Shown here piece by piece: positions 316 through 3,106 of a stretch of DNA of 5,737 bases. Both the position numbers and the translations under genes were made by a program. The stretch comes from a virus (lineage: Duplodnaviria; Heunggongvirae; Uroviricota; Caudoviricetes): IMG/VR virus record IMGVR_UViG_2667527770_000006, positions 1-5,737 of that record; one strand, 5' to 3'. The notes under the pieces were generated by a model that was not told the DNA's origin, did not search any database, and saw only the letters and a list, made by a program, of their open reading frames with translations. How positions within the stretch are numbered: the stretch's first letter is position 1; every line of letters starts with the position of its first letter.

Positions 316-1161
316 ATGGAAAAGATATTAACGATAGTACGACATAAACCAGGTAGGTTCCGTTTTTTATTAAGAGCATTACATTCTGTTTATAACCAAA
401 CATTCAAGGAAGTAAAAGTAGCAATATATTGCATGGGTGCTGAACAGGATCTCTCTAAAGATGAGTATTCGTATATTAACACAATCCAGGAAAAATATAA
501 CCTTAGTCTAATACCGTTCAATCAAGATGTATCAGAAATAATTAAAAAAAGTGATTGTGAATATATATGCTTTTTAGATGATGACGATACCTGGGCTCCA
601 GAGTATCTATCTCGCATTTCAAGTACGCTTACAGCGACACGTCTTAAATACCCGTCAATCAATGCCATAGCATGCCACAGTAATAAAGTGGTAGAGGTTG
701 CGGAGAGAAATAGAATAATTATTAACACAACATACCCATGGAATCATTACTTAGCAGTTGGCCCGCTTAGTTTTGATGTAATTCATTACAAGAATAGCCT
801 TCCAATTTCATCATGTTTTTTTGTTAAGAACTCAATATTTAATATTATAAATAAACATAACTTTTCTTCGCCATCTTTCTTTTGGCCCTTCTTAATTGAT
901 TATTTATCACAAAATGATCTTTGGATTCTTCCAGAACCCTTAGCATTCTATCATTTTAGAAAAAGTACCGATTTCAAGTACGGCAATTTCACAGAGATTA
1001 ACAGAGAAGAATGTGAGATTGATTATAGATTAATGATTAACAATATGATGAGAGATAGCAAAAACTCTACGCTATTAAACACACTACTATCAAACCTAAC
1101 TAATAGCAATATGGTATATAAACTATCCAACATTGAAAACAAATTAAATGAAAGAAAATAA
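316..1161 (+). CDS. Glycosyltransferase, family 2 (GT-A fold) candidate
   Basis: 281-aa ORF. FLDDDDTW (DDDD at nt 577-588) fits the GT2 hLD(S/D)DDxW DxD motif. The N-terminus ILTIVRHKPGRFRFLLRALHSVYNQTF resembles the GT-A beta1/alpha1 pattern (IP.YN...L...L.S...QT). Very AT-rich with rare codons, as in O-antigen and capsule genes. Weak Shine-Dalgarno. Confidence 0.75.
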   Translation: MEKILTIVRHKPGRFRFLLRALHSVYNQTFKEVKVAIYCMGAEQDLSKDEYSYINTIQEKYNLSLIPFNQDVSEIIKKSDCEYICFLDDDDTWAPEYLSRISSTLTATRLKYPSINAIACHSNKVVEVAERNRIIINTTYPWNHYLAVGPLSFDVIHYKNSLPISSCFFVKNSIFNIINKHNFSSPSFFWPFLIDYLSQNDLWILPEPLAFYHFRKSTDFKYGNFTEINREECEIDYRLMINNMMRDSKNSTLLNTLLSNLTNSNMVYKLSNIENKLNERK

Positions 1162-3106
1162 AATGAATATAGAAAAATATGACACGGTAAGCTTTGATAT
1201 ATTTGACACATTAGTTAGCAGGAGAATATATCGCCCAGCAGATCTTTTCTCACTAATGCAAATTGAAATAGCCAATAATTCTAATATTTTATTATCTGGC
1301 CATGAAGAAATAATAGATAACTTCGCTGAAATGAGGGTCCAGGCCGAAGTTTCAGCGAGAGCTAAACGAGTCAATAAATTCGGAGGTGAACCAGAAGTTA
1401 CTATTTTTGAAATATATGATGAAATTAAAGAGTTAAACGTTGGCATCTCAAAAGAAATTATCAACCAACTTATTCAACTGGAAATCAGCACTGAAAAAGC
1501 AGTATTATATAAAAATAATTCAGGATATAAACTATTTCAGGCAGCAGTAAAAAATGGTTCGAAAATAATTATAATAAGCGACATGTATTTCCCAACTAGT
1601 ATTTTAAAGGAATTGTTAATTTCATGCGGCTATAATGTTGATAACATCCCCATATACTCATCAGGAGAAATGCGCGCATCAAAAAATAGCGGGGAATTAT
1701 ATACTCTTATAAAAGAACGTGAGAAACCTCGTCAAAATTCTTGGCTACATGTTGGAGATAATCCTCGTTCTGATATAAGTAATGCTAAAAAACATGGAAT
1801 CCATACAATTCAAGCGGACTGGTCTGAATACGAGCATGGCACATCTTTTCATTGGAGAGCAAAAGATGTTGTTGGCGAATCATTATATAAAGCTTTATCA
1901 CTTAAACAAACCTCATCATTTTACACAAAAGATCCATTAACTGAGATTGGTTTTAAAGTATTTGGGCCTTTACTTTTAGGCTATATATCATGGATGTCAA
2001 ACCAGTTAAAAGTCCATAAAATTGATAAAGCTCTTTTCCTTGCTCGTGACGCACACTTAATTTACAAAATTTATAACAAATACTTTTCAGACGATCAGAT
2101 AGAAAGCGAATATGTGTATATTTCTCGTGCCTCTTCTTATATGATAGGTATGACAGACTGGCCAATGCATAGAATATGGCATCTTTTTGGCGGTAAAAAT
2201 AAAAAGAGTCTAAAGAAAATTCTTTCTATAGCTGGATTAGACGCCAAAAAATATATTTCAGATATACACAACGTTGGTTTTCCCAACGAGGAATATATAC
2301 CTAAACAAGGTGATGAACATAAAGTTCACTGGCTAATAAATAAACTATTTTCTAATATCTTATTAAAAAACACTCAAAATAGAAATGAGTATTCTGGTTA
2401 TTTTAAAAAAGCTTGTGGTGAACATAAAAATATTGCATTGATAGATGTTGGCTGGATGGGGAATATACAATCCGTTTTCGCTCGCTCACTTAGCGATGGC
2501 TGGGCTACTAAGAATATACACGGATTTTATTTGGCAACATTTCATGGTGCAAATGATAACCGCTCAATATACAATAAAATGTTTGGTTGGTTAGCGAACT
2601 ACGGTATACCTCAAGAAAAATGTGATCTTTTCTTTGCTGGTGGCATTGAACTGATGGAGTTCGCTATGGCTGACAACACAGGCTCCACAATAGGTTATAA
2701 AAAGACTGCTGACGGCATTATCCCCGTAAGAGAAAAAAACAGTGATTCTGAGGTTAGCTATTTAAATAAAGCACAGCGACTTCAGTCAGGAATTATTGCT
2801 TTTTTCGAATATTTACATCCTTTATTAAATAAAGAAAATATTGATGAGTTAAACAGTACAACACTGTCTGAGCCATTCTTTCAATTAGTCTCTAATCCAA
2901 CAACCTACCAAATTGAGGCATTGTCGTCACTCACTCATTCAGAATCGGTTGGAGGTAACGCGGAAAGGATTATGCTGGCAAAAAAACTACCTTTAAAAGA
3001 AAGGCTGTTCCCCGGTAAAATTTACGCATCAGAATTAGAGACCAGTTACTGGAAAGAGGGCTTCAAAAGATTAAACAGAAAGAAATTTTGGGCAAAATAC
3101 AACTAA
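1148..3106 (+). CDS. HAD-superfamily-like hydrolase domain protein with a large uncharacterised C-terminal domain (652 aa)
   Basis: The ORF overlaps the upstream gene by 14 nt, suggesting translational coupling; an alternative start is the ATG at 1163. N-terminal VSFDIFDTLV (aa 14-23) resembles HAD motif I, although in the non-canonical form DxxDT rather than DxDGT. IIIISDMYF is a plausible motif II, and HVGDNPRSD (nt ~1754-1774) fits motif IV GDx3D. Residues ~230-652 show no motif I can assign and no Walker A. Confidence 0.75.
   Translation: MKENKMNIEKYDTVSFDIFDTLVSRRIYRPADLFSLMQIEIANNSNILLSGHEEIIDNFAEMRVQAEVSARAKRVNKFGGEPEVTIFEIYDEIKELNVGISKEIINQLIQLEISTEKAVLYKNNSGYKLFQAAVKNGSKIIIISDMYFPTSILKELLISCGYNVDNIPIYSSGEMRASKNSGELYTLIKEREKPRQNSWLHVGDNPRSDISNAKKHGIHTIQADWSEYEHGTSFHWRAKDVVGESLYKALSLKQTSSFYTKDPLTEIGFKVFGPLLLGYISWMSNQLKVHKIDKALFLARDAHLIYKIYNKYFSDDQIESEYVYISRASSYMIGMTDWPMHRIWHLFGGKNKKSLKKILSIAGLDAKKYISDIHNVGFPNEEYIPKQGDEHKVHWLINKLFSNILLKNTQNRNEYSGYFKKACGEHKNIALIDVGWMGNIQSVFARSLSDGWATKNIHGFYLATFHGANDNRSIYNKMFGWLANYGIPQEKCDLFFAGGIELMEFAMADNTGSTIGYKKTADGIIPVREKNSDSEVSYLNKAQRLQSGIIAFFEYLHPLLNKENIDELNSTTLSEPFFQLVSNPTTYQIEALSSLTHSESVGGNAERIMLAKKLPLKERLFPGKIYASELETSYWKEGFKRLNRKKFWAKYN

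Follow-up and report, generated by a model that had tools for sequence, protein, structure and literature searches.

The window analysed here is the whole 5,737-nt stretch of IMG/VR record IMGVR_UViG_2667527770_000006 (Caudoviricetes), positions 1 to 5,737. It carries a two-gene cassette on the plus strand, followed by part of a Mu-like tail module, and holds IS1 sequence at both ends. The features are as follows.

1..151, minus strand: end of the left IS1 copy, which bounds the cassette (93% identical to the ends of other IS1 copies)
152..315, plus strand: AT-rich leader (34% GC) ahead of the two genes, presumed to hold a promoter, conserved in all contexts
316..1161, plus strand: 281-aa GT-A-like partner of the STM0725 type (54% identity to STM0725; Pfam; alignment with SpsA)
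1148..3106, plus strand: ORF of the predicted bifunctional ribofuranosyltransferase (70% identity to STM0726; full-length matches to 7SHG and Bcs3)
1148..1813, plus strand: predicted PRP domain, residues 1-222, a HAD-fold phosphoribose 5-phosphatase with alpha-helical cap (Bcs3 CrpP alignment, conservation, model)
1814..3103, plus strand: predicted gPRT domain, residues 223-652, a PRPP-dependent glycan phosphoribosyltransferase built of helical bundles and a PRTase-like alpha/beta core (conservation, Bcs3 alignment, fold search)
3107..3262, no strand: 3' non-coding tail, part of the cargo (in E. coli, in cassette carriers only)
3263..3461, no strand: prophage backbone segment beside the cargo slot (the same 199 nt adjoins gtrABC in the GDSC2239PM sister prophage)
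3526..5268, minus strand: Mu-like tail module remnant (Pfam, PGAP; intact versions in other loci), made up of the next three ORFs
3526-3720, minus strand: 64-aa ORF at the position of the tail-fibre assembly gene
3722-4606, minus strand: 294-aa tail-fibre ORF
4588-5268, minus strand: DUF2612/wedge protein
5476..5737, minus strand: right IS1 copy, C-terminal part of InsB (98.5% identical to IS1 copies in other loci)

The pair is cargo of a Mu-like prophage and is bracketed by IS1 in the window. The left IS1 end lies 165 nt before the first gene, and the same end precedes the genes in all contexts seen, the IMG/VR viral contigs among them; in PK8277 and WCHEC050613 the annotation has an IS1 transposase pseudogene that extends to the counterpart of position 93. 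On the right, ORF 5492..5737 (minus strand) is InsB sequence, and an IS1 transposase CDS is called there in two other loci (L021 and L029). A consensus promoter scan found no site in 152..315, and an Rfam scan gave no match. Downstream of the pair, 3107..3262 is absent from the phage database and the ORF called at 3148..3504 is probably spurious. The adjoining segment (3263..3461) is conserved in three prophage contexts, and a terminator-like hairpin with a T9 run lies at 3349-3384 (plus strand; -16.5 kcal/mol, z = -3.6). Pfam matches in the tail module are DUF2612 (E 6e-46) and, weakly, Gp53-like_C.

The two genes are low in GC. At several chromosomal sites they come last in a Mu-like tail module, and they also occur in two IMG/VR viral contigs and one Caudoviricetes MAG. 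In a sister prophage with identical baseplate proteins (GDSC2239PM), gtrABC occupies the same slot; none of gtrA, gtrB and gtrC occurs within the window. The cassette was present in 8 of 5,426 complete genomes and intact in seven of them. The copy in ET846 is truncated at its 5' end, so the cassette can decay, and the E. coli copies of the prophage itself are remnants.

The larger ORF (1148..3106, plus strand) translates without interruption to 652 aa. PGAP starts the gene at the ATG at 1163 (Met6), 1 nt past the TAA of the partner, which gives 647 aa; residues 1-4 of the longer form have pLDDT <50 in an AF2 model that scores 92.9 overall. Numbering here follows the 652-aa form, in which D17 corresponds to D12 of the 647-aa protein. 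Public annotation of the pair reads 'HAD family hydrolase' and 'glycosyl transferase'. On the 652-aa protein, Pfam gives only sub-threshold HAD matches (residues 11-221), TIGR01549 (HAD-IA) alone exceeds its cutoff in NCBIfam, and PHROGs and PADLOC scans gave no match. Neither Pfam nor NCBIfam holds a model matching the C-terminal ~430 residues, and for these libraries an earlier note on this DNA, which could assign no motif there, is borne out.

The picture changes when the full-length protein is compared with solved structures and characterised loci. A phmmer search matched 7SHG over residues 4-602 (E 1e-13) and Bcs3 (E 4e-16), and a profile of 66 homologues extended both matches to about 600 positions (E 2.5e-73 for Bcs3 and 5.5e-71 for 7SHG). 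Foldseek with the AF2 model returned Bcs3 first (E 2e-25) and then 7SHG (E 6e-23), each over 620-690 aligned columns, and all its other matches cover the ~220-residue HAD part alone, at E ~1e-5 or weaker. The protein is also 70% identical over 648 residues to a protein of the Salmonella T1 locus (P0002). That locus reads integrase, glf, GT2, GT4, wzm, wzt, GlfT2-like, GT-A, P0002 and nei, in agreement with the published STM0719-0726 locus, where P0002 corresponds to STM0726. STM0726 is the T1-antigen ribofuranan polymerase and STM0725 its GT-A-like partner (Kelly et al., 2024; PMC11294581). By these comparisons the 652-aa protein is a full-length dual-domain ribofuranosyltransferase, combining a PRP/CrpP with a gPRT/CriT domain. 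The earlier note had regarded the HAD fusion as unexplained, had called for structure prediction with a Foldseek search, and had named a confident full-length match to a characterised family as the outcome that would overturn its reading; such a match is what the search returned, and sequence, profile and identity to STM0726 agree with it.

Against deposited phage genomes tblastn found no full-length homologue, plasmid matches were all at or below 31% identity, and a scan of species-representative genomes gave a partial match in S. enterica diarizonae and distant MAG relatives, with no Klebsiella representative among them. The cluster at >=90% identity is mostly Klebsiella (Klebsiella pneumoniae), and the exact 647-aa sequence is indexed in 561 collection blocks without decay. 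What is new here is the context, not the protein family.

Both motifs quoted in the earlier note are present: FDIFDTLV at residues 16-23 (nt 1193-1216; D17, F19, D20, T21) and GDNPRSD at residues 203-209 (nt 1754-1774). The canonical motif I of the HAD superfamily is DxDx(T/V), and not DxDG(T/V) as that note had it; its observation that D17-x-x-D20-T21 departs from the canon stands, with F19 in place of the general acid/base Asp at +2. Motifs were assigned as I, FDIFDT with D17 as the putative nucleophile; II, S144; III, K179; and IV, G203-D204...D209. Those after motif I are intact, as had been supposed for motif IV: K179, G203 and D209 are invariant in the 66 homologues, and S144 and D204 are at least 90% conserved. 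The AF2 model places five strands and a cap in this domain at pLDDT >90, with the strand at 13-17 ending at D17, and its HAD-only fold matches include HDHD4/NANP, HDHD3 and YfnB, so the N-terminal region does look like the HAD core it was taken for.

The unusual motif I is the family norm rather than an oddity of this protein. The DxxDT motif including D17 is at least 90% conserved in the 66 homologues, as is the Phe at +2, and FDIFDT is identical in both solved structures, Bcs3 and 7SHG. Residues 15-225 align with chain positions 385-595 of Bcs3 CrpP, which sets D17 against Bcs3 D386 and STM0726 D14. The Bcs3 paper gives the HAD signature as DXD and finds the first Asp alone of motif I conserved; this residue, D386, is essential for the phosphatase (PMC10299916). 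Similarly, the D14A variant of STM0726 traps the Ribf-5-P product (PMC11294581), and the middle domain of Cj1432 is a true phosphatase with an essential first Asp (PMC12096443). These homologues speak against the suggestion of a transferase- or mutase-like HAD variant.

For the C-terminal part, the guess that it might be a transferase fares well, as the region matches the gPRT/CriT fold of Bcs3 and 7SHG, which were the only fold-search matches to cover it. R300, D301, S326, R327, D433, G435, W436 and E504 are invariant in the 66 homologues. In the Bcs3 alignment R300/D301 correspond to R679/D680, S326/R327 to S707/R708, D433 to E818 and E504 to E874. The protein thus has what is expected of a gPRT, namely an acidic pair to position the ribose (D301/D433), phosphate-binding Ser and Arg, and a candidate base (E504).

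The 281-aa partner is 54% identical to STM0725, the 277-aa product of the gene that immediately precedes STM0726 in the Salmonella T1 locus. Pfam Glycos_transf_2 covers its N-terminal half only, profile and HH comparisons with solved GT-A enzymes were likewise confined to that half or of low confidence (hhalign), and PHROGs gave a weak 'moron glycosyltransferase' match. The partner keeps a DXD motif (D88-D91, DDDD) and many invariant residues. The column of the GT-A catalytic base was read from a 128-sequence alignment that includes the verified SpsA sequence: at SpsA D191 the partner has F189, and the column is acidic in none of 18 close-clade members (F, S or G) and Asp in 106 of 109 distant relatives. 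With the catalytic base absent, the partner is probably non-catalytic and probably serves as an activator or stabiliser of the transferase. D195 was considered as a catalytic Asp of clade 2 and rejected; the distant clade has Arg there, and its conserved Asp aligns with F189. The association of the two proteins recurs, with the pairing kept in three other loci (L003, L006 and L007) and a natural fusion of partner and transferase in one protein (P0055). In the published survey, 91 of 121 STM0725 homologues adjoin an orthologue of STM0726, in one case on a Caudoviricetes phage, and such pairs occur in producers of Ribf homopolymers, e.g., S. marcescens O16 and L. crescens (PMC11294581).

The Galf-glycan ABC-transporter genes that accompany the STM0725/STM0726 pair in its own locus are missing from the window, with no glf, wzm or wzt there or beside the prophage copies; a cluster is found in trans instead. 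A Galf-glycan ABC-transporter cluster, of a kind found in about 1% of genomes, is present, unlinked to the cassette, in each of the seven E. coli genomes where the cassette is intact. In six of the seven it is a wzm-wzt-wbbM-glf-wbbN-wbbO island (55 of 5,426 genomes), and in MIN9 a GlfT2-type cluster; the gene for the Salmonella Galf polymerase (STM0724 equivalent), used as a DNA query, matched the MIN9-type cluster only. Co-occurrence of cassette and cluster gives a Fisher p of 2e-11, a naive value that ignores shared ancestry; in several carriers the island and the prophage have similar coordinates, and these genomes may be related, although PK8277 and WCHEC050613 differ in their flanking protein alleles. 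In one locus (L021) the IS1 block lies ~6 kb from a Galf-glycan cluster, and in another (L007) a pair of 53% identity stands directly beside homologous galactan genes. The acceptor of STM0726 is a terminal (1->3)-linked Galf (PMC11294581). Taken together, this makes it likely that the pair extends a galactofuranose-containing glycan with beta-ribofuranose. The most likely candidate acceptor is an undecaprenyl-diphosphate-linked, Galf-terminated galactan, which presumes that the chains made by the island end in Galf; at 70% identity, acceptor and linkage may differ from those of STM0726.

We consider it highly probable that the 652-aa protein acts together with the 281-aa partner as a bifunctional, PRPP-dependent beta-ribofuranosyltransferase directed at a Galf-glycan, and that the two are carried as prophage/IS1 cargo. 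This explanation draws on homology, conserved residues, fold, gene pairing, mobile context and co-occurrence, and from these we infer enzyme activity, polymerisation, complex formation, acceptor and biological effect. In the proposed first step, on the cytoplasmic face, the gPRT domain would bind PRPP-Mg2+ and move ribofuranose-5-phosphate, with inversion, onto a hydroxyl of the acceptor's terminal sugar. R300, S326 and R327 would grip the phosphates, D301 and D433 would orient the ribose, with E504 as the probable base. In the second step, the PRP domain would strip the 5-phosphate through an aspartyl-phosphate on D17, and this dephosphorylation would expose the ribose for the next addition; transfer from PRPP followed by dephosphorylation has been demonstrated in homologues. 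By analogy with the action of STM0725 on STM0726, the partner most likely attaches to the transferase and promotes successive additions. The predicted product is a beta-(1->2)-ribofuranose chain on a galactan supplied by the ABC-transporter pathway encoded elsewhere in the genome, which would yield an O-polysaccharide of two domains, comparable to Salmonella T1 or Serratia marcescens O16. On this view the Mu-like prophage carries the pair as cargo for lysogenic conversion, and the two IS1 copies here lend it further mobility.

Three alternative explanations were weighed. In one, the protein belongs to the same family but adds a single residue, a beta-Ribf cap or side branch on an O-unit, ECA or LPS core, next to an independent and active glycosyltransferase. 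Most characterised members (K. pneumoniae O4 ORF5 and O7 ORF7, Bcs3 CriT, Cj1432) do attach a single ribose in each cycle, STM0726 on its own stops after one or two residues (PMC11294581), and the intact DDDD/DXD and many invariant residues of the neighbour would suit a working enzyme. We nevertheless find this unlikely, given that the closest characterised relative, at 70%, is the polymerase STM0726, that the neighbour, an STM0725-type protein, lacks an acidic residue in the base column, and that such pairs are those of the homopolymer producers S. marcescens O16 and L. crescens (PMC11294581). The view taken by the earlier note is of an atypical HAD-like transferase or mutase, not a phosphatase, fused to a novel domain. 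The missing Asp+2 of motif I and the lack of a Pfam or NCBIfam model for the C-terminal 430 residues are what it has in its favour, and we hold it to be very improbable in the face of full-length homology to characterised enzymes, of a HAD module whose counterparts in STM0726, Bcs3 and Cj1432 carry this motif and are demonstrated phosphatases, and of a C-terminal domain with the structurally defined gPRT/CriT fold.

It could also be that the genes are intact but silent or without acceptor in E. coli, riding a degraded prophage/IS1 composite that came from Klebsiella. This would fit the mostly Klebsiella membership of the >=90% identity cluster, the remnant state of the E. coli prophage, an upstream region broken by IS1 in which the promoter scan found none, and the rarity of the cassette (8 of 5,426 complete genomes, one copy truncated); moreover, a review that lists Ribf-containing O-antigens includes neither O149 nor O176. 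On the other hand, the exact 647-aa sequence persists in 561 collection blocks without decay, the catalytic residues are all intact, every intact carrier also has a Galf-glycan cluster, and in one locus (L021) the IS1 block has moved next to such a cluster, all of which leads us to doubt that the genes are idle passengers.

If the preferred explanation, an active ribofuranosyltransferase pair, is right, then prophage and IS1 can bring ribofuranan capping to strains with galactofuranose-containing O-polysaccharides, with changed antigenicity and, probably, changed phage and serum susceptibility. More tentatively, the cassette may be a mobile ribofuranan add-on for Galf-terminated O-polysaccharides of Klebsiella and E. 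coli, such as those of the D-galactan-I type (Klebsiella O2-like), which it would turn into a T1-/Serratia O16-like two-domain antigen by cytoplasmic PRPP-dependent polymerisation of beta-ribofuranose; we see this as a real possibility, and would not yet lean on it. It would be a form of lysogenic conversion distinct from Gtr glucosylation and O-acetylation. Vaccine and antibody development is directed at the galactan-based O1/O2 antigens of Klebsiella pneumoniae, so that a capped variant of those chains, unrecognised until now, would be of practical relevance. The protein itself needs no new explanation, and its annotation could become 'PRPP-dependent ribofuranosyltransferase'. The conserved D20 at +3 offers a simple test case for a HAD subgroup that works without the usual Asp+2.

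Among known systems, the closest is STM0726/STM0725 of Salmonella enterica (PMC11294581), which shares gene order, tight junction, two-domain architecture, nucleophile Asp, a partner without the GT-A base and low-GC genes, at identities of 70% and 54%. The Salmonella pair forms the last two genes of an 8-gene chromosomal locus (with glf, wbbN, wbbO, wzm, wzt and glfT2) that has an invertible promoter and lies between pxpA and nei. In contrast, the pair in the window stands alone as prophage/IS1 cargo, and its candidate cluster is unlinked and of the galactan-I type, with WbbM and not GlfT2. The prototype enzymes (Kelly et al., 2022, as presented through PMC11294581 and PMC11231755) are 7SHG from Thermobacillus composti and K. 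pneumoniae O4 ORF5 and O7 ORF7. They share the PRP-gPRT arrangement, the PRPP donor, FDIFDT and full-length alignment, yet have ~20% identity, make single additions, lie inside O-antigen loci and have no STM0725-like partner reported. Domain orientation also differs between 7SHG and the 652-aa model (TM-score 0.43 over 624 columns).

In structure, Bcs3 of Haemophilus influenzae type b (PDB 8A0C; Cifuente et al., 2023; PMC10299916) matches best (E 2e-25). Its CrpP and CriT domains have in common with our protein all reported functional residues, including a motif I that keeps the first Asp only, but Bcs3 joins three enzymes in one polypeptide, with a TagF-like CroT and an SH3b domain as additional parts, and it makes a ribosyl-ribitol-phosphate capsule with ribitol as the acceptor. 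Campylobacter jejuni Cj1432 (PMC12096443), likened here by its published description, uses the same two-step chemistry of a middle HAD phosphatase and a C-terminal PRPP transferase on a furanose acceptor (C5 of GalfNAc); it differs in being fused to a GT4 GlcA transferase as part of a capsule repeat-unit polymerase. The classical HAD phosphatases (NANP/HDHD4, HDHD3, YfnB) share the Rossmannoid core and cap, motifs II-IV and the nucleophile Asp, but have Asp at +2 as general acid/base, where the 652-aa protein has Phe and a conserved Asp at +3 (D20).

Finally, the GtrABC seroconversion cassettes occupy the same cargo slot beyond the tail-fibre assembly gene in the sister prophage and, like the pair, presumably alter the surface glycan of the lysogen. 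Their mechanism is unrelated: Gtr works in the periplasm, where it modifies finished O-units from an undecaprenyl-phosphate-glucose carrier, whereas prediction places the Ribf pair in the cytoplasm with PRPP as its donor.

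The main protein lies in an uninterrupted reading frame, and residue numbers used here refer to its 652-residue form.

1148..3106, + strand: uninterrupted ORF of the main protein, 652 residues

PGAP starts this gene at ATG 1163, 1 nt past the stop codon of the partner gene, and labels the 647-aa product 'HAD family hydrolase'; in the AlphaFold2 model of the longer form, confidence is low for the first four residues. Only sub-threshold HAD matches (residues 11-221) were returned by Pfam, with no match beyond those residues, and NCBIfam gave the generic HAD-IA subfamily only. The earlier note had left the protein unexplained, but a full-length match to a characterised family was found (7SHG, Bcs3 and Salmonella STM0726). 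A PDB sequence search gave two specific matches: the Thermobacillus composti ribofuranosyl transferase 7SHG, aligned over residues 4-602, and the capsule polymerase Bcs3 of Haemophilus influenzae type b, matched in its central and C-terminal part; the FDIFDT motif is common to both. With a profile of 66 homologues the E-values were 5.5e-71 to 7SHG and 2.5e-73 to Bcs3 over about 600 positions. Structure prediction with a fold search among solved structures, the check that the note had suggested, likewise placed Bcs3 first (E 2e-25) and 7SHG second (E 6e-23) with 620-690 aligned columns for a model with mean pLDDT 92.9 and pTM 0.93, and the remaining matches covered only the ~220-residue HAD part (E about 1e-5 or weaker). 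The matched modules of 7SHG and Bcs3 are dual-domain ribofuranosyltransferases, in which an N-terminal HAD phosphatase (PRP; CrpP in Bcs3) takes off the 5-phosphate (PMC11294581, PMC10299916, PMC11231755, PMC12096443).

The nearest abundant homologue, database protein P0002, is 70% identical over 648 residues. Its locus reads integrase, glf, GT2, GT4, wzm, wzt, GlfT2-like, a 277-aa GT-A gene, P0002 and nei, an order that matches the published Salmonella T1-antigen locus STM0716-0726 (PMC11294581), and P0002 is therefore STM0726. The main protein is a 70% orthologue in a family characterised between 2022 and 2025, real but already explained.

Motif I (FDIFDTLV, residues 16-23) does lack the usual second Asp, with Phe at +2 after the first, and motif IV (GDNPRSD) is present at residues 203-209, both as had been noted. 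Motif I is not anomalous, however: DxxDT is the family signature, because F16, D17, F19, D20 (the Asp at +3) and T21 each reach 90% conservation or more in an alignment of 66 sequences, the same homologues that were used for the profile, and because CrpP of Bcs3 keeps only the first Asp of its DXD signature, D386 (PMC10299916). D17 aligns with D14 of STM0726, whose replacement by Ala abolished dephosphorylation and trapped the Ribf-5-P product (PMC11294581). The remaining HAD motifs are intact in the same alignment (S144, K179, G203, D204, D209).

That the C-terminal domain carries no assignable motif holds for Pfam and NCBIfam and fails on alignment with the CriT module of Bcs3. After correction of the chain numbering, every CriT residue with an assigned function aligns to a column that is invariant among the 66 homologues.

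Residues of the main protein aligned with functional residues of Bcs3 CriT (roles from PMC10299916)
R300: CriT R679; binds the beta-phosphate of PRPP
D301: CriT D680; ribose positioning, Ala mutant less active
S326, R327: CriT S707, R708; phosphate binding, ribose positioning
D433: CriT E818; ribose positioning, Ala mutant less active
E504: CriT E874; proposed catalytic base

A distant transferase homologue (24.6% identity over 85%) occurs on small plasmids of E. coli, Enterobacter, Citrobacter and Serratia with an adjoining GT1 gene (NZ_CP074003.1 from E. coli, 29 kb; NZ_MF344556.1; NZ_CP037738.1; CP068398.1). The accession NZ_CP074003.1 adjoins that of the PI12 chromosome, so this plasmid may come from that cassette carrier.

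The genes of the partner and the main protein, referred to here as the cassette, have a GC content of 32-34% against 49-53% around them. Few complete E. coli genomes have the cassette (8/5,426, chromosomal every time); its place is a Mu-like prophage remnant between yecD and yecE, at the end with the tail-fibre genes. The assembly collection has the exact 647-aa protein in 561 index blocks; at several chromosomal sites its gene closes a complete Mu-like tail module. Two IMG/VR viral contigs encode it with 100% identity. The cluster of this protein at 90% identity or more is mostly Klebsiella and includes one Caudoviricetes MAG. The coordinates of features around the cassette and of the sister prophage are as follows.

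3010-7198 of sister Mu-like prophage L032 (E. coli GDSC2239PM, NZ_CP136018.1): gtrA, gtrB, a gtrC-like gene and ISKpn26
3263-3461 of the window: backbone segment of 199 nt shared with that sister prophage
3349-3384 of the window, + strand: GC-rich hairpin with a T9 run behind it, -16.5 kcal/mol, z = -3.6, roughly 240 nt past the stop codon
1-151 and 5476-5737 of the window: IS1 copies in the same orientation

The pair occupies a classical seroconversion cargo slot, because gtrA-gtrB-gtrC take this place in the sister prophage, whose baseplate proteins are identical, and are joined there to the same backbone segment. The hairpin within this segment looks like an intrinsic terminator of the cargo genes; a consensus scan did not detect it. 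Between the cassette and the backbone, about 155 nt (3107-3262) of conserved, non-coding sequence with intermediate GC accompany the cassette and have no match in the phage database, and the ORF at 3148-3504 (118 aa, TTG start) is probably spurious. Upstream, a 51-nt leader stretch (220-270) recurs at 90% identity in a P2-like prophage of E. coli QDFD216 (L011, 6001-6051), between a phage invertase gene and IS1 near gtrA/gtrB, and could be a sequence that such cargo slots, or IS1 junctions, have in common. Past position ~3461-3525 the compared contexts diverge in the tail-fibre region, which suggests recombination at the host-range module; within 3526-4606 (- strand) a 64-aa ORF takes the place held elsewhere by the tail-fibre assembly gene, and the adjoining 294-aa tail-fibre ORF is incomplete according to PGAP.

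Over its full length the window is a 99.9% match to an arrangement that has one IS1 copy on either side of the pair and three tail-gene remnants. The identical 5.7-kb block occupies distinct chromosomal positions in L021, within a CP4-like island close to wzm, and in L029 (8234-15027), adjoining ycdT-pgaA. Two sites for one block, with its IS1 copies oriented alike, suggest that the pair and the tail remnants moved as an IS1 composite transposon.

Neither glf nor ABC-transporter genes are present in the window. The O-antigen cluster of one cassette carrier is of the O149 Wzx/Wzy type, a second carrier is O176, and both types are absent from a review's list of Ribf-containing O-antigens. Two Galf clusters of carriers are located as follows.

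NZ_CP019213.3 2887348-2895250 (L031, E. coli WCHEC050613): integrase-bearing, Klebsiella-type galactan island with an extra GT2; galactan cluster at 2888630-2895250
NZ_CP069682.1 1407190-1413776 (L010, E. coli MIN9 O176:H45): IS1-flanked cluster in a type I restriction-modification locus

The WCHEC050613 island, adjoining ycdU and additional to the O149-type rfb locus, holds a complete wzm-wzt-wbbM(DUF4422)-glf-wbbN-wbbO cluster. Such a galactan cluster was detected in 55/5,426 E. coli genomes, including 6/8 cassette carriers, and six times on plasmids of 26-162 kb. The seventh carrier, MIN9, has a different cluster with wzm, wzt, glf and wbbN-like, wbbO-like and GlfT2-like genes (two GTs and a 583-aa GlfT2-like GT), together with a PEtN transferase gene and foreign hisIE. 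These genes make up a galactofuranan set like that of T1 and lack the Ribf pair, which MIN9 carries on a prophage about 470 kb away. In the eighth carrier, ET846, the cassette is 5'-truncated and neither the galactan cluster nor the MIN9-type cluster was found. Naive Fisher tests, which take no account of shared ancestry, gave p = 2e-11 (galactan cluster, all 8 carriers) and p = 1.4e-14 (any Galf cluster, the 7 intact carriers). About 6 kb separate the IS1 block from the galactan cluster in L021, and in a locus between gnd and his (L007) a 53%-identity pair directly adjoins homologous galactan genes (WbbM-like 66%, WbbO-like 57% identical). The Klebsiella O2 galactan and T1 share the WecA-WbbN-WbbO primer, and Serratia marcescens O16, which owns such a pair, makes a Ribf homopolymer (PMC11294581). 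From this co-occurrence, linkage and comparison with the T1 paper, the acceptor is likely to be a Galf-containing glycan that is assembled in the cytoplasm.

In the proposed mechanism, the gPRT domain would bind PRPP-Mg2+ and pass Rib-5-P, with inversion, to the terminal sugar, and PRP would then hydrolyse the 5-phosphate via D17; homology lends strong support to these two steps, which we consider very probable. The partner may bind and stimulate repeated cycles to give a beta-ribofuranose chain, and the host ABC transporter and WaaL may export and ligate the product, both plausible steps with a chance a little short of even. The points of continuing interest are the mobile setting of the pair and a T1/O16-like pathway that appears divided between a prophage/IS1 cassette and an unlinked galactan island, mainly in Klebsiella and in a small number of E. 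coli.

The catalytic base of the partner was assessed in an alignment of 128 sequences comprising SpsA (reference identical to PDB 1H7L_A), 125 relatives of the partner that an exhaustive profile search had found, the partner and STM0725. The column of SpsA D191 holds Asp in 106 of the 109 distant relatives (motif GDW[DE]F) and F, S or G in all 18 close relatives, including the partner (F189) and STM0725; on this alignment the partner is therefore assigned to the STM0725, base-less type, and its DXD motif is kept. Partner residue 195 (window 898-900) is Asp/Glu in E. coli and the Rosenbergiella-type, His in STM0725 and Ser in the Serratia-type, and its column holds Arg in the distant, presumably catalytic, clade. 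The partner domain also forms the C-terminal part of proteins of 675-1,100 aa (P0055, P0193, P0208, P0214, P0215, P0221, P0226, P0242), of which P0055 (1,100 aa) is a natural fusion of a full ribofuranosyltransferase with an STM0725-like partner. In Salmonella, STM0726 builds a beta-(1->2)-ribofuranose polymer on terminal (1->3)-linked Galf and requires STM0725, a GT-A-like, complex-forming protein whose catalytic activity is not needed (PMC11294581). The partner (316-1161, 281 aa), whose gene lies upstream of that for the main protein, is 54% identical to STM0725, a value that is also the highest non-Salmonella identity to STM0725 in the survey of the T1 paper (PMC11294581).
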